Assembly: GCA_016187125.1 (NCBI GenBank)
Contig: JACPKF010000007.1
Coordinates: 835-64,834, forward strand
Reading direction: 5' to 3'
Origin: Candidatus Saccharimonadota bacterium
Lineage (GTDB): Bacteria > Patescibacteriota > Saccharimonadia > Saccharimonadales > UBA10212
DNA length: 64,000 nt
The position numbers were made by a program, and so were the translations under genes. This document shows, one piece after another, positions 5,022 to 46,523 of this stretch. Every line of letters begins with the position of its first letter. Within the stretch, counting starts at the first letter, position 1. The notes under the pieces were generated by a model. It was given only the letters and a program-made list of their open reading frames with translations, was not told where the DNA came from and did no database searches.

Positions 5022-6755
5022 ATGGACGAGTTAAAGGAGGTAGTCAAAAAAGCCTCCAAAGATCTTTTTGGTGTTGATATTGAACCGGAACTGGCGCGGC
5101 CGGAAGAGCAGTTTGGCGATTACAGCACCAACGTGGCTTTGCAATTGGCCGCCCAACTAGATAATCCACCAGCAGGCGGACCTCGCGAAATCGCCGAGCA
5201 ACTAAGCAAAAGTGTGATAGGTTTAACCTATCACATTAAAAAGGTTAAGGTGGCTGGGCCAGGATTTATTAATTTTTGGTTGGCTGACAGTGTCTTGTTG
5301 GACGAGCTTAGTAAAGTAGACTCCAGTTATGGCAAAAACCAGCTTCACGCTGGCAAAACGGTAGTTGCTGAATATTCCGATCCAAATCCGTTTAAAGTTC
5401 TGCATGTAGGACATTTATATACCAGCGTGGTTGGTGACAGCATTGCCAAATTATTTGAAGCCGCTGGTGCCAATGTCCACCGTGTCAATTTTGGCGGCGA
5501 TGTTGGCCTTCATGTTGCCAAAACCATGTGGGCGATTATAGGTAAGTTAGAAGGAGAACATCCCGAAAAACTGGCAAAAATACCGGCCGAGAAACGCGCC
5601 GACTGGTTGGCCAAAGAATATGTCACAGGCAGTCTTGCGTATGGGGATGACAAGAGGATTGATGATGAAATCGAAGAACTGAACAAGCGAATTTATCAGA
5701 TACAAAATGACCAGGATAAAACTTCTGAGCTAGCCCGGATTTATTGGACTACTCGGCAGTGGAGCTACGACTATTTTGATGAATTTTATAAGCGTATTGG
5801 CTCAGGCTTTGAGAAATATTATCCAGAAAGTGCCACAGTTGAGCCTGGAATGAAAATAGTTAAAGCCAACATTGGCAAAGTTTTTGAAAAATCAGACGGT
5901 GCGGTTGTTTTTAAGGGCGAAGTCCACAACATGCATACTCGAGTATTCATAAATAGCCAAGGGCTGCCGACTTACGAGACTAAAGATGTTGGGCTAATCC
6001 TCAAAAAGTGGGAAGATTACCATTTTGATCGCTCGGTTGTAATTACGGCCAATGAAATCTATGAGTATATGCAGGTGGTTTTGAAAGCAGTTGAGCAGTT
6101 TGCACCCGATCTGGTTCAGAAAACTACTCATATTACGCATGGCTTAGTAAAGCTGGCTGCTGAAAGTCCTGAGCAAGGTCGAAGGAGCGGCACAAAAATG
6201 AGCAGCCGCAGTGGCAACATTATTGGGGCTGAGGAGGTGTTGGATGCGGCCATGACCGCTAATAAACAGATTAACCAGCAAGAAAATGCCGATACGGCTC
6301 TTGGTGCTGTCAAATATGCCTTTTTGAAAAATCGCATCGGCGCCGATATTATTTTTGACCCGGCCGAATCAGTCAGTCTGCAAGGTAACAGCGGGCCGTA
6401 TCTTCAATATGCGCTTGTTCGCGCAAAAAGTATTTTGCGCAAGTCCTCAGTCCCTAGTCCTCAGTCCCTAGCTAAAGACTCTCAGCTCACAGCTCTGAAC
6501 TCTTCCGAGCGATCTCTCGCTAGGAAGCTCGGTGAATACCCGGAAGTGGTTGAAAAAGCCGTAACCGAATTGATGCCGCATCATGTCTGTACCTATTTAT
6601 ATGAGCTGGCACAGATTTTTAATCGGTTTTATGAAAGTAATCACGTGATTGGCGATCCTCGGGAAAGTTTGCGCCTAAAACTTGTTCAAGCCTATGCCCA
6701 AGTTTTAAAAAATGGCCTGGGGTTGCTCAACATTCCAGCGCCAGAAAGGATGTAG
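5022..6755 (+). CDS. argS: arginine--tRNA ligase
   Basis: 577 aa with a class I HIGH motif (HVGHLYTSVVGD) and the ArgRS anticodon-binding C-terminus. It contains a tandem-repeat insert at 6441-6500. Confidence 0.95.
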   Translation: MDELKEVVKKASKDLFGVDIEPELARPEEQFGDYSTNVALQLAAQLDNPPAGGPREIAEQLSKSVIGLTYHIKKVKVAGPGFINFWLADSVLLDELSKVDSSYGKNQLHAGKTVVAEYSDPNPFKVLHVGHLYTSVVGDSIAKLFEAAGANVHRVNFGGDVGLHVAKTMWAIIGKLEGEHPEKLAKIPAEKRADWLAKEYVTGSLAYGDDKRIDDEIEELNKRIYQIQNDQDKTSELARIYWTTRQWSYDYFDEFYKRIGSGFEKYYPESATVEPGMKIVKANIGKVFEKSDGAVVFKGEVHNMHTRVFINSQGLPTYETKDVGLILKKWEDYHFDRSVVITANEIYEYMQVVLKAVEQFAPDLVQKTTHITHGLVKLAAESPEQGRRSGTKMSSRSGNIIGAEEVLDAAMTANKQINQQENADTALGAVKYAFLKNRIGADIIFDPAESVSLQGNSGPYLQYALVRAKSILRKSSVPSPQSLAKDSQLTALNSSERSLARKLGEYPEVVEKAVTELMPHHVCTYLYELAQIFNRFYESNHVIGDPRESLRLKLVQAYAQVLKNGLGLLNIPAPERM

Positions 6756-12829: not shown

Positions 12830-13091
12830 GCAGCCTATTGACGCAAGGCGGGAAAATGCTGTATAAACTGACGCATGAGTTATTTACTCAGTCAGAATCA
12901 ATTGTTTTTTAGCTCCTCACGCGGGGGCTTAGCTTCATTTTGTAAGTAAACATAACTAAATAAAGTCAATCACAAGCCCCCAACAGGGGCTTTTTTAATA
13001 TTTAAATTTAACCCGCCATCCGCCTGAGGTGGATTGCGGGCTTGGCCGCACAAACTTCCAAAGAAGTTTAGGTGGCCGAAGGGAGAAAGAA

Positions 13092-26683: not shown

Positions 26684-27796
26684 ATGCCTGAGCTTCCTGA
26701 AGTTGAGATTATAAAACAAGGCTTATCTAAACTATTGCCCGGGCGGATTATTGCCGACGTTTGGCACAACTGGCAAAAATCTTTTCCGAACGCGCCAGCG
26801 GATGTGGCCCGATTTTTGGTGGATGCCAAGATCATATCAGTTAAACGTCGGGCCAAAGTCTTGATAATTGAACTTTCCAGCGGCTACTCGCTGGTTGTCC
26901 ATTTAAAAATGACAGGGCAACTAGTTTTTGTGCCAAAAACCAGCGAGCAAAAAGCCCGCCTTCGCCAAAGCTACGGTCGACAGGCAAAAAGCAAAAAGCA
27001 AAAAGCCGAAAAAAAGTTTGGTGGTGGGCATCCGACCAAAAGCTTAATAGGTAAGCTGCCGGACAAATCAACCCGAGTCATTGTTGAGTTTTACCCCCCG
27101 AAAGGCGCGCGGGACATACGCTTGAGTACGTTGCAAGGAAAAGTTGAGCAACGGACTAAGCCGTATATGAAATACGGTGAAGGAGTAGCGCAGACTTTGA
27201 CACAGCAAAGTGCCAAGAGTGTCGCCGGAGTGCCAGGGCGACAGCCCGAGCAGCAGGGCGACACGGCGCATGGTCCGCGACTTTTTTTTAATGATCAGCG
27301 TAAGTTTGGCTGGATGCGCCTGCTGCCGACGGTTGAGGTGCCCCAGATTGACTTTATGAAAAAAGTCGGCCCGGAGCCGCTGGAAGATAATTTTACGGTT
27401 GGTGTGTTTATTGAAAGACTCAACCGCCGAAAAAACAGCTCGATAAAAGCTATGCTGCTGGATCAAACCGTGCTGGCTGGAGTGGGGAATATCTATGCTG
27501 ACGAATCCTTATTTGCCGCTAAAATCCATCCAGCTACCCCGGTTTTTAAAGTTTCTAAAGCAAAATTAGTAATGCTCCATAATGCCCTGCGCCAAATACT
27601 GCAGCAGGCAATAGATAAAGGCGGCAGCACGGACCGAAATTACGTTGATGTCAAAGGTAAAAAGGGGAGTTATCTGAACTTTGCCCAGGTTTTTAGAAGA
27701 CAAGGCCAAGTGTGTTCCCGCTGCGGAGGCGTCATACAGAAGATACGCGTAGCTGGAAGAGGTACTCACATATGTCCAAGGTGTCAAAAACGTTAA
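26684..27796 (+). CDS. mutM: formamidopyrimidine-DNA glycosylase with a ~62-aa internal insert
   Basis: N-terminal MPELPEVE, H2TH (GVGNIYADESLF) and a C-terminal zinc finger (CSRCGG...CPRCQ). It is 370 aa against about 270-290 aa for typical Fpg. Confidence 0.88.
   Translation: MPELPEVEIIKQGLSKLLPGRIIADVWHNWQKSFPNAPADVARFLVDAKIISVKRRAKVLIIELSSGYSLVVHLKMTGQLVFVPKTSEQKARLRQSYGRQAKSKKQKAEKKFGGGHPTKSLIGKLPDKSTRVIVEFYPPKGARDIRLSTLQGKVEQRTKPYMKYGEGVAQTLTQQSAKSVAGVPGRQPEQQGDTAHGPRLFFNDQRKFGWMRLLPTVEVPQIDFMKKVGPEPLEDNFTVGVFIERLNRRKNSSIKAMLLDQTVLAGVGNIYADESLFAAKIHPATPVFKVSKAKLVMLHNALRQILQQAIDKGGSTDRNYVDVKGKKGSYLNFAQVFRRQGQVCSRCGGVIQKIRVAGRGTHICPRCQKR
27092..27277 (+). repeat. in-frame translated insertion element (family F3) inside fpg
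   Basis: The core gagtacgttgcaagg...ccgtatatgaaatacggtgaaggagtagcgcag aligns with 37493-37583 in the UDG gene. Contains hairpins ccgtatatgaaatacgg and gtcgccggagtgccagggcgac. Confidence 0.75.
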
Positions 27797-29268: not shown

Positions 29269-29643
29269 TTATTTTTTTGCAACAGGTTTCTTAGCAGGCT
29301 TTTTTGTGGCAGGCTTTTTGATCGGAGTTTTTTTAGCTGCTTTTGGCGTGATGACTTTAGGGGTAGCTTTGGAAGGTTTTACGCCGGCGGATTTGGCTTG
29401 GGAAGCTAATCTGGCTTTTTGGCGGGCGGCCTTATTTTTATGAATAACATTTTTCTTGGCTGCCGTATCAATAGCGCTCGTGGCCTGGTTTTGGGCTTTG
29501 ACAATACCGGCAGCTTTACCGCTCTCCATAGCTTTGGCAAAGCCTTTTAAGGCTTCACGCAAATTGCGCCTGGTCCTGGTATTGCGAGCATTAGCTTTGG
29601 CAGCTGTCTTGACGCGCTTTTTAGCAGACTTGATTATTGGCAT
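29269..29643 (-). CDS. rpsT: 30S ribosomal protein S20 with a Lys/Pro/Ala-rich C-terminal tail
   Basis: MPIIKSAKKRVKTAAKANARN is the S20 N-terminus. The protein is 124 aa and ends in PKAAKKTPIKKPATKKPAKKPVAKK. Confidence 0.9.
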   Translation of the reverse strand: MPIIKSAKKRVKTAAKANARNTRTRRNLREALKGFAKAMESGKAAGIVKAQNQATSAIDTAAKKNVIHKNKAARQKARLASQAKSAGVKPSKATPKVITPKAAKKTPIKKPATKKPAKKPVAKK

Positions 29644-31822: not shown

Positions 31823-32593
31823 ATGGATGGATTTTTGTTAGTTGATAAGCCAATTGGTATGACGTCGCATGATATTGTAGCGAGAGTGCGCGGCGTGCTA
31901 CGCACAGTCGCCAGTCAATACTCAACAGTCGCCAGTCGAAAAAAACTAGGGACTAAGGACTATCGACTAGTGACTCCTTCGGCGAAGCCGAAGGTTGGTC
32001 ACACTGGAACTCTGGATCCGCTGGCCACGGGATTGATGATTTTAGTGATCGGCAGTTATTGTAAACGGGCTAGCGAATTTAGCAAATTGGACAAAACTTA
32101 TGAAGTAGAACTGACGTTAGGAGCTACCAGTACAACCGGTGATACCGAAGGTCACATAACTTCAACTTCAGATAAGCACAACCTAAACAGAATTCAGCGA
32201 TCGCTGAATTCTGTTCCGAAAATAACGGAGGTGCTTAAGACATTTATTGGCGAAATTAAACAGGTTCCTCCAGCCTATAGTGCCATCAAAGTGGGCGGAC
32301 AAAGGGCCTATAAATTGGCGCGGCAAGGGAAGCCAGTCAAAATTGAGCCGCGAAAGGTTATGATCTACGAAATACGATCTACGATCTACGAGTACCCGAA
32401 GCTGTGTTTCACAGCCAGGGTGTCTAGTGGTACATACATCCGGTCACTGGCCGAAGATATCGGTAAAAAACTCGGCACCGGCGCTTATGTTTCAGCTCTG
32501 CGCCGCACCAAAGTTGGAGGCCTTAATATAGAAAATGCTCTCGAAATTGACAAGTTCTCGCTTCCAAACATCGAAAATCACTTGCAAAAGTAG
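31823..32593 (+). CDS. truB: tRNA pseudouridine(55) synthase with repeat-derived inserts
   Basis: Contains GFLLVDKPIGMTSHDIV, KVGHTGTLDPLATG and SSGTYIRSLAEDIG. Confidence 0.9.
   Translation: MDGFLLVDKPIGMTSHDIVARVRGVLRTVASQYSTVASRKKLGTKDYRLVTPSAKPKVGHTGTLDPLATGLMILVIGSYCKRASEFSKLDKTYEVELTLGATSTTGDTEGHITSTSDKHNLNRIQRSLNSVPKITEVLKTFIGEIKQVPPAYSAIKVGGQRAYKLARQGKPVKIEPRKVMIYEIRSTIYEYPKLCFTARVSSGTYIRSLAEDIGKKLGTGAYVSALRRTKVGGLNIENALEIDKFSLPNIENHLQK
32187..32216. repeat. perfect 30-nt palindrome (aacagaattcagcga|tcgctgaattctgtt) inside the truB CDS
   Basis: It has the same ttcagcgatcgctgaa core as 12792-12829 and is translated as NRIQRSLNSV. Confidence 0.75.
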
Positions 32594-36992: not shown

Positions 36993-37859
36993 ATGACCAA
37001 ACAAGAAGAACTTGCAAAAATTAAGGCTGATATTGTGAAGCAAAAAATTTGCCCAGACCTGGCCGCCGGTGCCACGCAACTGGTTTTTGGCGATGGTGAT
37101 CCGGACGCCGAGCTAGTCTTTATTGGTGAAGCGCCCGGTAAAAACGAAGATGAGCAAGGTCTGCCATTTGTCGGCGCGGCCGGTAAGTTTTTAAATGAGA
37201 TGCTAGCACTTATAGGGCTAAAACGTGAGGACGTATACATTACCAACATTGTTAAATATCGCCCGCCGGAAAATCGTGACCCATTGCCTGATGAAAAAAC
37301 GGTCTTTTTGCCGTTTTTGCATGCTCAGCTGGCAGTGATTAAGCCCAAAATTGTGGTAACGCTAGGCCGTCACAGCATGGAGTGCTTTTTGCCGGATCTG
37401 AAAATTAGTGTCTGTCACGGCCAAGCCAAAAGGATCAGAGTGGAGAATGGAGAGGGCAGAGTGAAGAAAGTCGTGGCAGGTGGCCAAGTGGCGAGTACGA
37501 TGCAAGGCGCAGGCGAGCAGCGGACTGAAACGTATGGAAAATACGGTGAAGGAGCAGCGCAGCCTGCAACACAGCAGCGTGCCGCAAGTGACAACAGTGT
37601 CGGTGGCTCTGCCGACGACCAGGTTGTTACGTCCTTGGTCATCCTGCCGTTGTTTCATCCGGCGGCGGCCTTATATAACGGCGGAATGCGCCAAACATTA
37701 ATAGACGATTTTATGAAGATACCGCGTATTTTAGCTAAACTTGAGCAGACGCCTAACTCTTTTGATAAACAAAAAACGCGGGAGGTGCAAGTTTCTGTCG
37801 TGTCTCAGCCAGAAGTTAAAAAAGCTGGCCCGAGCCAACTTCAATTAGGTATTAAGTGA
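36993..37859 (+). CDS. family-4 uracil-DNA glycosylase with a ~65-aa internal insert
   Basis: GEAPGKNEDEQGLPFVGAAGKFL and HPAAALYN are family-4 UDG motifs. It is 288 aa against about 190-210 aa typical. Confidence 0.85.
   Translation: MTKQEELAKIKADIVKQKICPDLAAGATQLVFGDGDPDAELVFIGEAPGKNEDEQGLPFVGAAGKFLNEMLALIGLKREDVYITNIVKYRPPENRDPLPDEKTVFLPFLHAQLAVIKPKIVVTLGRHSMECFLPDLKISVCHGQAKRIRVENGEGRVKKVVAGGQVASTMQGAGEQRTETYGKYGEGAAQPATQQRAASDNSVGGSADDQVVTSLVILPLFHPAAALYNGGMRQTLIDDFMKIPRILAKLEQTPNSFDKQKTREVQVSVVSQPEVKKAGPSQLQLGIK
37436..37638 (+). repeat. in-frame translated insertion element (family F3) inside the UDG gene
   Basis: gagtacgatgcaaggcgcaggcgagcagcggactgaaacgtatggaaaatacggtgaaggagcagcgcag is homologous to the fpg insert. 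The peptide is QGAGEQRTETYGKYGEGAAQ. Confidence 0.75.
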
Positions 37860-37863
37860 TGAA

Positions 37864-38059
37864 CCCATCTCACACCTCCACTCCAGCTTCGGAAACTTTG
37901 TGCGGCCTACAACAAGCATACCGCTCGCCCGGCCTTCGTAGCCAAGGCCACTTCGGCGGAGTAGGCTCACCATACCTTACAGGTATGCTTCCTCACCTGA
38001 TGCTTGTTTCGTCTACACCTAAAGGTTTCTCACTTAACAGACTGGAGATATGAAATGGG
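37864..38059. other. ~196-nt rod-like structured element (long imperfect terminal inverted repeats); ncRNA or MITE
   Basis: The 5' cccatctcacacctccactccagcttcggaaactttgtg pairs with the 3' cacctaaaggtttctc...gactggagatatgaaatggg. The internal module cgcccggccttcgtagccaaggccacttcggcggag recurs inverted at ~45940-45975. Confidence 0.5.
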
Positions 38060-38098
38060 CTCAATGAAAACTAAATTTAACAGGAAGGAAAATCATCA

Positions 38099-40186
38099 AT
38101 GGATGACAAAGCAAAAAATCTAGACAGTCAACCATCCAATCAGCCAAATAGTAGAACCGCGCCCGGTCGTAACTTGGTTACTTCAACCGGCCGAAATGTC
38201 TCTAGAGGGGCGGCCATCCGGGCCCAAAAACAAGCGGTTAACGATGCTAATCGGGTAGCTAGTCAATATCTTGATGCAGCCAATAAACATCCGCTGGCTA
38301 GCGGAGACCGGCCAAGACGTGCCAACGTTATTGATGATAATCCGCGGCTAAAAATTATTGGCTTGGGTGGCATGGATGGTGGCGGTTCTAAAAATATGCT
38401 GGTGATCGAATACCAAAATGATGCAATTGTGATTGATTGCGGCAATGATCTAGGCGTTGATCTGCCAGGCATTAACTACGGTATCGCTGATACGACTTAC
38501 CTCGATCAAATAAAAAATAAGCTAAGAGGTTTTGTCATAACCCATGGGCATCTGGACCACATGGGCGGCCTACCTCACATTTTACCCAAATATAACGTGC
38601 CGGTTTATGGCGGCCGTTTTACCATCGGACGGGTGGAGGAAATCTTTCAAAACTTTGGCCTGCCAATGCCCAAGGGCTTTGAGCTTAAAACTGTCATCAT
38701 GAACGAAACAACCCACGAACGTCTTAAAATTGGCGTGTTTTTCGTGGAATTGGTGCGAGTAACCCATGCCATCCCAGGCAGCACCATGGTAGTGGTTGAT
38801 ACACCGGTGGGTAGAATTATAAATACCGGTGACTTTCGCCTAGATCCCAATCCTTTGGATCACGAAAGAACGGATACGGCACGCATTGAGGAACTGTCTC
38901 GTGAAAATGTGCTGCTACTGATGAGCGAAAGTACTACCACCGAAACCCTTGGCCGTACGCTATCGGAAAGCCAAATCGAGAAAAGCTTTATAGACATTAT
39001 GGACCAGGCGCCCGGACGGATTTTCGTGGCTATTTTCTCGACCAATGTCAATCGCATCCAGATGATAGTTAACGCTGCTGTGCACCACGGGCGTAAAGTG
39101 GCGATTGATGGACGCAGCATGATTAGCACGCTGGAAATGGCCGTAAAAAACGGCTTTATGAAGATTCCCAAGGGTACATTTGTACCGATAGCTTCAGTGT
39201 CTAATCTCAAAGATGATCAAGTTGTGGTAGTCAGTACTGGAGCCCAAGGCGAACCGAACTCGGCGCTTCAACGCATGAGTACGGGGGATCATAAATACGT
39301 TGCATTAAAAGAACAAGACACCGTCATTCTGTCTAGCCGGGCTATTCCGTACACCGGCAATGACGCCTTAATACGCTCTATGGTTGATGAGCTCTTTAAA
39401 AAAGGAGTACACGTTTTTCGTCACGAAACCTACGAGCTGGACGGCGGTGGGCCACTGCACGTTTCCGGGCACGGCGGTCAAGAAGAATATCGGGATATGA
39501 TTAAAATGGTCAAACCAAAATTCTTTTTGCCCATTTACGGCGACTATACCGCCAAAAAATACCATATAGATATTGCTTTGGAGGAGGGAATTCCGCGGGT
39601 CAATACACTGAACGTTGACAACGGCCAAGTCATAACGCTTGCTAAAGACAAAATGCAGCTTGGTGGCGAGGTGCCGCATGGCACCATCTTGGTAGATCAA
39701 ACCGGGGCTGTGGTTAGCACGGTGGTGGTTAAAGACCGGGTCCTACTGGCCGAAGAGGGCGTAGTGGCGGTGGTGCTGACTATCGACAAAAAAACCGGCC
39801 AGCTTCTAACTAGCCCAGATATAATCAGCCGCGGCTTTATCTACATGAAAGAGAATGAAGAGCTAATGAATGCTTTTCGCGCCGAACTGCGCCGAGCGGT
39901 TAGCCAGCGCTTTAAGCGGGTTGATCTGGACCGCTTTAAGGCCGAGCTAAAAGACTACGTCACCCACTTTTTGTACGAGCAAACCCAACGCAGCCCAATT
40001 GTCATCCCAGTAGTTAACGTTATTGGCGGCCGGGCAGAAAAAGCCAATAATAATCTGCACGGTGCCGGCCAAGTTGCGCCCAGCGGTGAAACTCCCAAGA
40101 CGCCTGAAGAGATTGCTTTAGAACAGCAGCGCCGATTTGCACAGATGAGGCAACGACTGCTCAACCAAGACGCCCGTGTGGACTAA
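38099..40186 (+). CDS. rnj: ribonuclease J
   Basis: Metallo-beta-lactamase HGHLDHMGG, beta-CASP layout and the conserved HVSGHGGQEE. There is a ~90-aa polar N-terminal extension. Confidence 0.9.
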   Translation: MDDKAKNLDSQPSNQPNSRTAPGRNLVTSTGRNVSRGAAIRAQKQAVNDANRVASQYLDAANKHPLASGDRPRRANVIDDNPRLKIIGLGGMDGGGSKNMLVIEYQNDAIVIDCGNDLGVDLPGINYGIADTTYLDQIKNKLRGFVITHGHLDHMGGLPHILPKYNVPVYGGRFTIGRVEEIFQNFGLPMPKGFELKTVIMNETTHERLKIGVFFVELVRVTHAIPGSTMVVVDTPVGRIINTGDFRLDPNPLDHERTDTARIEELSRENVLLLMSESTTTETLGRTLSESQIEKSFIDIMDQAPGRIFVAIFSTNVNRIQMIVNAAVHHGRKVAIDGRSMISTLEMAVKNGFMKIPKGTFVPIASVSNLKDDQVVVVSTGAQGEPNSALQRMSTGDHKYVALKEQDTVILSSRAIPYTGNDALIRSMVDELFKKGVHVFRHETYELDGGGPLHVSGHGGQEEYRDMIKMVKPKFFLPIYGDYTAKKYHIDIALEEGIPRVNTLNVDNGQVITLAKDKMQLGGEVPHGTILVDQTGAVVSTVVVKDRVLLAEEGVVAVVLTIDKKTGQLLTSPDIISRGFIYMKENEELMNAFRAELRRAVSQRFKRVDLDRFKAELKDYVTHFLYEQTQRSPIVIPVVNVIGGRAEKANNNLHGAGQVAPSGETPKTPEEIALEQQRRFAQMRQRLLNQDARVD

Positions 40187-45141: not shown

Positions 45142-45687
45142 ATGAGTTCGATTGAAGAACTAGACCATATAGTCAACCCCGATTATCAAGCCTTTTCATC
45201 CGCAATATTCCCCGGTGGATTACCGGGGGAATATGATCCTATTTGGGAAGCCTATTGGCCCCTTGCGCCTGGGGTTGACGGTCAAGTTGTCCCTGTAGTA
45301 GAAGTTACGCTTGTTAAGGATCAATCAATCGAATTTCGTACTCAAGAAGAAATAGAACATATGTTAGCAACCAACGGCTTAAGAGCCACTGCATTGATTC
45401 GTGGTGGCAAACGACCCAAAGAAGCTTTACCACCAAAACACATCAGAGATGCCAGTCGAGAACCCAAGCTGCAACCTCCCACAAAAGAAGTAGAGGTGCG
45501 CGATGAAAAAACTGGAAAAGTCGTAAGATTGGAAACAGTCCCTATGAGACTTGATGAAAGGGCTAAGCCACCTAGCTATGCGAAACATGTGGGCGCAACA
45601 ATTACTCCCGAAGTACGAGAAAGTGCTATTGACGTACTTCAAAGAGACAGCGAAACACATAAAGACAATCGCCAAAGGGTTCGGTAA
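45142..45687 (+). CDS. hypothetical protein (181 aa)
   Basis: Intact ORF with a good promoter and SD. No motif recognised. Confidence 0.5.
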   Translation: MSSIEELDHIVNPDYQAFSSAIFPGGLPGEYDPIWEAYWPLAPGVDGQVVPVVEVTLVKDQSIEFRTQEEIEHMLATNGLRATALIRGGKRPKEALPPKHIRDASREPKLQPPTKEVEVRDEKTGKVVRLETVPMRLDERAKPPSYAKHVGATITPEVRESAIDVLQRDSETHKDNRQRVR

Positions 45688-45828
45688 GGCTCTATATCAT
45701 ATTTGACTAACAGGGGTAAGTTAGTTAAAATAAAACCATTGTCAACTCAGCTTGCGGCGAAAGGCGCGTAGGTCCACCCGCCTAAACTTCTTAGAAGTTT
45801 TGGTGGGCAAGTCTAAAGGAGGTTCTAT

Positions 45829-46488
45829 ATGAGTGCACGAGCAACGCAGACTGGTGCAATACAAGGCGCGGGTGAGGAGCGCAACGAAGATGTACAAAAT
45901 GGTACATCGAGTAAGCACCGCAGCCCGCAAGCCGACTCCGCCGAAGTAGCTTCGGCTACGAAGGCCGGGCGCACTAATGCGTCTGAAAGCGCTAGCAGAA
46001 TCGGCGGCTCAGCCAGTGAGCAGTACAGTGCGGTGCGTGGGTCGGTGAATCAATATGAGATTGCGGTGTTATACCATCCGGATCTGGAAATTGATCTGGG
46101 AAAAGCCTCTGCTAAGGTAGAACAGATCATCGCTACCAGCGGGGGTAAAATTACCAAAACTGACAATTGGGGCAAGCGCAAGCTGGCTTATCCCATTAAG
46201 AAAAATGACTTTGCGGTGTATGTTTTTTACGATGTGGCAATGGAACCATCAGGCGTAGCCAAAATCGAGCAAACTTTTAATATAACCGATGAGATTATCC
46301 GTTTTTTGATAACCCGGCCGGATTTTAAAGCCAAAGCCAAAGCCGAAGCTCTGGCCAAAGAAAAGGCTAAGAAAGCTGCCGAGAGAAGCGAAAAAGATGA
46401 CGAAGATAAGGACGACGAGCGAGAGACTGAAAAACCTCGTCGTAGTAGAATAATAGCTAAGAACTTGGGACTAGGGACTAAGGACTAA
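45829..46488 (+). CDS. rpsF: 30S ribosomal protein S6 with a repeat-derived 72-aa N-terminal extension (alternative start GTG 46045)
   Basis: The S6 core is YEIAVLYHPDLE...KTDNWGKRKLAYPIKK. A strong SD aaaggagg serves the ATG at 45829. The conventional S6 N-terminus begins at 46045. Confidence 0.85.
   Translation: MSARATQTGAIQGAGEERNEDVQNGTSSKHRSPQADSAEVASATKAGRTNASESASRIGGSASEQYSAVRGSVNQYEIAVLYHPDLEIDLGKASAKVEQIIATSGGKITKTDNWGKRKLAYPIKKNDFAVYVFYDVAMEPSGVAKIEQTFNITDEIIRFLITRPDFKAKAKAEALAKEKAKKAAERSEKDDEDKDDERETEKPRRSRIIAKNLGLGTKD
45832..46044 (+). repeat. F3-related insertion immediately after the rpsF start codon, in frame
   Basis: atacaaggcgcgggtgaggagcgcaacgaagatgtacaaaatggtacatc parallels the fpg/UDG insert core (peptide QGAGEER). 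It also carries the ctccgccgaagtagcttcggctacgaaggccgggcg module. Confidence 0.65.
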
Positions 46489-46523
46489 GGACTAAGGACT
46501 AAATCCGACAAAGGAGGATTTTT

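Follow-up and report, generated by a model that had tools for sequence, protein, structure and literature searches.

Why the rpsF gene of a Candidatus Saccharimonadota bacterium starts 72 codons ahead of the canonical N-terminus of ribosomal protein S6 was asked for a 64,000-nt stretch of its genome, called here the window. The rpsF ORF, given in the ORF list at 45829..46488 (+), encodes 219 amino acids, and the same S6 is found in the NCBI annotation of the source contig (P0001, 100 % identity, Candidatus Saccharibacteria). Residues 75-163 matched PF01250 (Ribosomal_S6) over profile positions 1-90 of 90 with 86.5 bits; this full-length match and the rpsF-ssb-rpsR context, with SSB and S18 encoded downstream, place the product in the bS6 family. 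The first-pass annotation of this DNA had set the S6 N-terminus 72 codons downstream of the ATG, at an in-frame GTG, and this was borne out, since the Pfam domain starts at residue 75 with profile position 1 and the GTG aligns with Met1 of other S6 proteins (MNQYEIAVLY). The strong Shine-Dalgarno (SD) site that it had assigned to the ATG was found as well, with a 6-nt spacer, and the GTG was likewise seen to have no SD ahead of it. The hairpin in the leader further upstream is presumed to be autoregulatory. A promoter scan of the extension revealed no promoter-like site within it. The RNA fold predicted for 45832..46044 had a free energy of -91.5 kcal/mol (z = -3.5). Peptides predicted for a translated extension include ATQTGAIQGAGEER and one that spans GSVNQYEIAVLYHPDLEIDLGK. 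The features of the locus and of the related elements are collected in Table 1.

Table 1. Positions of the features of the rpsF locus, of related repeats in the window and of repeat copies in the rpsF-ssb-rpsR operon of other genomes (the latter in coordinates of the respective locus).
Feature	Position	Strand	Evidence or remark
Promoter-like site ahead of rpsF leader (TTGACT, 17 nt, TAAAAT)	45703..45731	+	sigma-70-like, 10/12 matches
rpsF leader hairpin CAACTCAGCTTGCGGCGAAAGGCGCGTAGGT	45743..45773	+	conserved in filled and empty rpsF loci (alignment)
Shine-Dalgarno site AAAGGAGG, 6 nt 5' of ATG	45815..45822	+	SD and spacer also in L004 (filled) and L088 (empty)
ATG in current use as rpsF start, 5' junction of insert	45829..45831	+	left-junction ATGAAT mirrors right-junction TTGAAT in other filled loci
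Element-derived coding sequence, 71 codons	45832..46044	+	nhmmer, CM R1 82.5 bits, consensus structure, covariation
Structured core of rpsF copy, P1-to-P1	45838-46044		
Tip hairpin of arm A, GATGTAC-AAAATG-GTACATC, with invariant GTAY...RTAC	45889..45908	+	three pairs invariant, four covary
Extra 39-nt hairpin module ADSAEVASATKAG, 13 codons, in internal loop of arm A	45931..45969	+	missing from other rpsF copies
GTG, ancestral rpsF start, now internal Val	46045..46047	+	empty sites: TTG or ATG; other filled loci: TTG, GTG, GGC, GTA
Canonical S6 core, charged C-terminal tail and stop codon	46048..46488	+	PF01250 residues 75-163; AF2 fold residues 74-162
Inverted copy of 42-nt hairpin module	37926..37967	-	90% inverted repeat; within different structured intergenic element
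Second copy, in frame in UDG gene (36993..37859)	37469..37656	+	CM 151 bits
Third copy, in frame in Fpg/MutM gene (26684..27796)	27100..27290	+	CM 145 bits; Pfam domain gap
Hotspot copies in L016	1465-1653, 2201-2390		
Hotspot copy in L087	10429-10614		
Hotspot copy in L151	725-914		
Hotspot copy in L013	10862-11047		
Hotspot copy in L169	11475-11616		

The 213 nt between the ATG and the GTG had been described as related to a repeat, and kin of this segment were indeed identified at two other places in the window, far beyond chance. A DNA profile seeded from rpsF copies detected them with nhmmer at 37473-37634 (E 1e-33) and 27106-27278 (E 2e-29), and the unfiltered search of the 64 kb with CM R1 returned exactly three copies, the two best-scoring ones and the rpsF copy itself, the latter matched over 45828-46054. 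All three are sense, in frame and inside genes (UDG, Fpg/MutM and S6). The copy in the family-4-type UDG forms a 64-aa insert in comparison to the UDGs of three relatives (L007, L088 and L169), and that in Fpg sits between the N-terminal and H2TH domains. In another MAG (P0175) a 93-aa ORF begins in the element and runs into the C-terminal part of UDG (..VILPLFHPAAALYNG..), so the UDG insertion is common to at least one other genome; the UDG gene of P0175 may be split or mis-called.

When rpsF was compared with its counterparts in relatives, a homologous extension was present in approximately 40 of the best 120 S6 clusters, typically as exactly 60 aa before N-Q-Y-E, and the remaining clusters among these 120 start with M-N-Q-Y-E. 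Sixty of the 72 extension residues are common to a scattered set of Saccharimonadales. The GTDB species representatives provided 80 loci, 77 of them with a recognisable S6 core, and 3 of these 77 were filled; the metagenome scan gave at least about six new filled loci among the matches listed. Empty sites consist of the SD, 5-7 nt and TTG/ATG AAT CAA TAC GAA, and filled sites of the SD, 6-7 nt and ATG AAT GCA CGA ... GGG TCG TTG AAT CAA TAT GAA. The promoter, leader hairpin and SD are common to both. It follows from the empty sites that translation originally began at the codon that now forms the 3' edge of the insert (TTG, or GTG in the window). The xTGAAT flanking the insert at either end resembles a target duplication that has decayed, and its left copy probably now acts as the start. 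The earlier statement that the element was inserted right after the start codon therefore holds if the ATG at the 5' junction is the duplicated xTGAAT target, and is wrong otherwise, the ancestral start being at the 3' edge.

Close kin of the carriers turned out to be empty. The filled locus L004 and the empty locus L088 share 96 % identity over EF-P+S18+SSB as well as over the S6 core, and the EF-P+S18+SSB identity between filled and empty loci is 94 % for the window and L001 and 84 % for L009 and L012. The two kinds of allele are intermingled among close relatives, and no footprint is seen in the empty ones. A gene for bAvd, the accessory protein of diversity-generating retroelements, is located at 6150-6491 of L088, near the empty rpsF locus.

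The explanation that we regard as probable is that the 5' end of rpsF carries a copy of a dispersed, non-autonomous, highly structured repeat of ~175 nt, translated as a disordered tail of S6 and carried as a tolerated passenger. According to this explanation the repeat would have entered the start codon of rpsF in a forebear shared by some of the Saccharimonadales and would have left the SD and the regulatory leader upstream of the insert. The ATG of the 5' junction, which most likely stems from duplication of the target xTGAAT, would now begin translation, and the ribosome would read the one stop-free frame of the element and enter S6 through the former start codon, here read as Val. S6 would in this way gain a disordered N-terminal tail, of 60 aa in most carriers and of 72 aa in the window due to the extra 39-nt hairpin module in the internal loop of the element. 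The peptide would be the tolerated passenger; the properties that are conserved are the fold (P1 and two arms) and the open frame.

The consensus fold was derived from 21 copies at different loci and in different genomes. It comprises a 10-bp terminal helix P1 and two arms, the long arm ending in an invariant GTAY...RTAC hairpin and the second being closed by GGC-TYT-GCC. As many as 41 of its 49 pairs showed changes on both sides, and 90.8 % of cells were paired, in comparison to 70.5 % in shuffles (0 of 500 reached the observed value) and 26-38 % with slid partners. In the ten rpsF-resident copies taken alone, 92.7 % of cells were paired and 16 double-change pairs were counted, versus 9.8±1.7 after shuffling and 1-3 when the partners were slid. 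The hairpin gatgtacaaaatggtacatc, already noticed in the 213 nt from the sequence, was recovered as the tip of arm A. G-U pairs were more numerous than A-C pairs on the shown strand in every copy, an outcome favoured by the prediction method. The window had no hit to Rfam 15 at the gathering score, and with E up to 5 no relevant Rfam match was obtained over 45650-46120 or 37400-38120.

Pairwise differences at codon positions 1, 2 and 3 numbered 226, 235 and 286 in the extension and 361, 297 and 1093 in the S6 core, and this distribution gave no hint of purifying selection at the amino-acid level in the extension. In the AlphaFold (AF2) model the pLDDT of residues 1-72 is below 50 and residues 74-162 adopt the S6 fold with confidence, and the extension is accordingly predicted to be a disordered tail. 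The even spread of substitutions over codon positions, together with the disorder, indicates that selection acts on the nucleic-acid fold and the open frame and not on the peptide. Third codon positions carry ~0.23 differences per site in the extension versus ~0.51 in the S6 core and hence change less than half as fast. Unpaired columns of the element are more conserved than paired ones (0.175 vs 0.224 differences per site), and the rpsF copy forms an island of nucleotide identity with sharp edges: between L004 and L006 the identity is 0.65 upstream, 0.90-0.97 inside and ~0.75 in the core. A purely passive passenger fails to explain the slow evolution, the conserved loops and the sharp identity edges of the rpsF copy. 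The fold may have gained a role in the rpsF mRNA, or an active element may re-enter or recombine at this site and be precisely lost.

It is possible, and suggested here tentatively, that the repeat belongs to an undescribed functional class of nucleic acids, a three-way junction, which is kept by the host at rpsF or re-homes site-specifically into the rpsF start codon with footprint-free excision. Host selection at rpsF or re-homing would each explain both why filled alleles are mixed with empty ones and why the nucleotides of the insert form a conserved island. The persistence of the element in essential coding sequences could then be due to its translatability, and under host selection it could act at rpsF as a domain of regulatory RNA joined to the leader and start of S6.

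Somewhat unlikely, but compatible with the passenger explanation, is the domestication of the element as an RNA that is translated and in addition constitutes a functional part of the rpsF mRNA, tuning initiation or stability beside the S6:S18-type leader. The compensatory changes by which the rpsF copies keep their fold speak for such a role, as do the greater conservation of the unpaired columns, the slow third positions and the steep rise of identity at the element edges. P1 begins only 9 nt past the ATG, and the extension identity follows host relatedness (rho 0.44, p 0.007), with some discordant pairs such as L009/L010 (extension identity 0.90, neighbouring proteins 0.77). However, very close relatives (L088, L001 and L012) and likewise most species do without the element, the middle of the fold is gone in L094 and L095 and the gene is still retained there, and the same element occurs in unrelated genes and, in either orientation, between genes. 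The same pattern of conservation could also arise if an active element re-inserted or recombined repeatedly.

The passenger explanation requires the tail to be translated, and the reading frame was analysed in this respect. The long frame is open in 13 of the 13 rpsF-resident copies with DNA and in ~40 protein clusters. All length changes of the extension are multiples of 3 (+13 aa in the window and L169, +21 aa in P0048, shortening to 42 and 36 aa in L094 and L095, respectively). From P1 to P1 the canonical frame is stop-free in all 12 genic copies, and stops interrupt all sense frames in 7 of 9 intergenic copies; the open frame is therefore maintained only within genes. In the DNA of many carriers the old start is TTG or GTG, but it has become GGC (L007, L092) or GTA (L094, L095) in others, and the corresponding residue across the proteins is L, V, G, R, M or W. 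Where it has decayed to a non-start codon, only the upstream ATG is usable. Taken together, these comparisons are strong though indirect evidence, from which we infer that the tail is made; it would then probably stay on the ribosome.

It is improbable, in view of the above, that the extension is an untranslated structured leader and that normal S6 is started at GTG 46045 (TTG in relatives). The retention of GTG or TTG at the old start in most carriers and the strong folding of the region would agree with this possibility, but the GTG has no SD and is situated within the 3' strand of helix P1, while the SD and leader are placed for the upstream ATG. Moreover, several lineages have GGC, GTA or an R or W codon at the old start, and the 60-codon frame is never broken and has its indels in multiples of 3, whereas the intergenic copies gather stops. 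The alternative posed in the first-pass annotation, a repeat-encoded extension or a restart at the GTG, is hence answered in favour of the extension by the open frame, the in-phase indels, the SD placement and the start decay; some extra initiation at GTG 46045 is possible in this genome.

The constant length and the recognisable peptide consensus in ~40 clusters might suggest that selection favours the extension as a genuine protein module which gives S6 a new function, on the ribosome or outside it. This is very improbable given the even substitutions and the predicted disorder. The peptide differences also track compensatory changes in the stems, the same peptide appears in more than 12 unrelated protein families, and the module is dispensable in close relatives.

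Bypass elements, as in T4 gene 60 and the byps of Magnusiomyces, have matching take-off and landing codons and a stop after take-off, and do not need an open frame. That canonical S6 results because the element is spliced out as an intron, processed by RNase or bypassed between ATG-AAT and TTG-AAT is scarcely credible here even though P1 brings both junctions together and ATGAAT and TTGAAT match in several loci, since no Rfam family, group I/II introns and self-cleaving ribozymes among them, gave a relevant match at E up to 5, the codons at the two junctions are unlike in the window (AGT, AAT), L009, L007 and L092, no stop follows the putative take-off site, and the always open frame and conserved length would be needless in a removed element.

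The breadth of the repeat family was assessed at the protein and DNA levels. An exhaustive search of 1.84 billion cluster representatives with a profile built from the element's peptide matched 45 proteins at E < 1e-3. The peptide was found in frame, at an N-terminal or internal position, in housekeeping hosts comprising RluD-like, MnmA, HAD phosphatase, TsaE, TsaB, MsrA and MGMT-like proteins as well as FolD, NrdR and Y-family-polymerase-like, S1-domain and pilin-like proteins. Many further matches are 57-60-aa 'hypothetical proteins' that correspond to the element alone (orphan ORFs). The named source organisms of the matches are Saccharibacteria or Patescibacteria. With the CM, 33 copies were detected in 1.77 Mb around rpsF of related genomes; the genic copies are all sense, and the non-genic ones are mostly antisense to co-directional flanking genes (16 vs 5). 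The rpsF-ssb-rpsR operon is itself a hotspot of the element in other genomes, with antisense copies directly ahead of rpsF and others that separate rpsF from ssb or follow ssb (Table 1).

Among the known systems, the closest analogue of the repeat is the Rickettsia palindromic element (RPE). The match is a functional one; membership of the RPE family and a sequence relationship are not claimed. RPEs (Ogata et al. 2000, as summarised in the sources cited) are short dispersed repeats read inside Rickettsia genes (PMC10969869, PMC3184786). The two share a dispersed repeat of ~100-180 bp with strong hairpin potential and no encoded transposase, the location of at least about half of the copies within housekeeping ORFs, always with one stop-free frame, and of others in intergenic DNA, and the addition of a conserved peptide that does not destroy the host protein (PMC10969869, PMC3184786). 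The repeat studied here is dispersed (three copies in the window, 33 CM hits and 45 protein representatives), its 12 genic copies are all open in the canonical frame and encode a recognisable peptide, and it has a stable secondary structure of the hairpin type. It differs from RPEs in its host phylum, Saccharibacteria/Patescibacteria, and in its fold: in place of a simple palindrome it forms a three-way junction of P1 and two arms, in which the loops are conserved and an extra hairpin is optional. Two further differences are that one copy captures a start codon to give an N-terminal extension of an essential ribosomal protein, and that the rpsF copy is conserved in nucleotides above synonymous sites.

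In-frame fusions at the 5' ends, 3' ends and interior of ORFs have been described for the MITEs ERIC, BOX, Coxiella QMITE and those of Anabaena (PMC3184786, PMC5896051). Like MITEs, the element is small and non-autonomous, with filled and empty sites and pairing termini: the TIR-like P1 represents a 10-bp end pairing, 92.5 % paired, in which 10 of 10 pairs covary. A short target-site duplication is possible at rpsF, where xTGAAT is present on both sides of the insert in several loci, but none is seen at the UDG copy. The copies also differ by many compensatory changes and are not the near-identical recent copies expected of MITEs. No parent IS or transposase was found in the window: its 64 ORFs, with Pfam matches to housekeeping genes only, include no transposase domain and hence no related autonomous IS with matching ends, and the search of these ORFs for a mobiliser (transposase, RT or recombinase) was negative.

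As for REP/BIME-RAYT and the PATEs of IS200/IS605 (PMC3733652), a Y1_Tnp (IS200/RAYT-like) gene of 206 aa is present at 10170-10790 of L004, 10 kb from the filled rpsF. Its 47%-identical homologue at 7974-8582 of L041 was the one match of the L004 Y1 transposase in tblastn, and Y1 transposase genes thus occur in 2 of ~165 related loci. With no transposase in the window and Y1 in so few loci, we infer the mobility of the element from its distribution. By analogy with these systems, structure-dependent and strand-specific recognition of ssDNA would explain the conserved fold and loops, the G-T pairs of one strand and the footprint-free empty alleles. The element is ~175 nt long, unlike REPs of 20-40 nt (PMC3733652), and no conserved target tetranucleotide or motif could be defined for it.

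The REP2-type repeats of Neisseria, equipped with both an RBS and an ATG (PMC3184786), resemble the rpsF copy in that the repeat supplies the translational start of the downstream gene. They differ in that the SD here is ancestral and the element has no ATG as a fixed component. A constant element-borne ATG was considered and rejected, as intergenic copies have no ATG at that position. Full-text literature searches found no description of such elements in Saccharibacteria or Patescibacteria.

The length of the tail in the window is accounted for by the extra hairpin module. The module had been said to recur in inverted form elsewhere in the window, and 45930-45971 is in fact a 42-nt, 90 % inverted repeat of 37926-37967. 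In the alignment it is a GC-rich hairpin that makes the copy of the window 39 nt longer than the others. L169 carries a different 39-nt hairpin at the same point, which indicates that this site accepts optional hairpins, in resemblance to the variable arms of structured RNAs. On the evidence of the alignment, the 13-aa module is the only lineage-specific part, and the insertion itself is not private to this genome. The intergenic element that contains the inverted copy (37860-38098, -, between the UDG and RNase J genes) has a ~20-bp terminal helix and -90.9 kcal/mol (z = -5.0). It was rejected as a family member, since the CM does not recognise it and the 42-nt module is the sole shared part; no further copies of it were found in the fetched related loci.

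With this repeat the RPE phenomenon, in which selfish repeats survive in protein-coding genes because they can be translated, is extended to the Candidate Phyla Radiation. A 2024 review of MITEs still treated RPEs as the outstanding case and only speculated on the same in other prokaryotes (PMC10969869). The phylum, the three-way-junction fold, the start-codon capture and the nucleotide conservation of an orthologous genic copy distinguish it from the known systems. An essential ribosomal protein is predicted to tolerate a disordered N-terminal tail of 60-72 aa that arose by start-codon capture, and the unusually strong covariation and the conserved loops make the element a candidate for a new structured RNA or ssDNA motif. 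For annotators, it offers a reason for odd insertions and for the 57-60-aa 'hypothetical proteins' in Saccharibacteria MAGs.

Several other repeats were observed in the window. A 34-nt palindrome, CCACCCGCCTAAACTTCTTAGAAGTTTTGGTGGG, at 45774-45807, between the conserved leader hairpin and the SD, is missing in L004, L006 and L007 and has an 80 % inverted match at 13051-13075; it is another small mobile hairpin family. The tandem heptamer GGACTAA/GGACTAG at 46456-46500 forms the last rpsF codons (..NLGLGTKD) and the spacer before ssb, and occurs also at 31945-31975 and, inverted, at 6442-6474. The S20 ORF at 29272-29643 (-) encodes 124 aa with the Pfam domain on residues 4-83 alone and may represent another extension.
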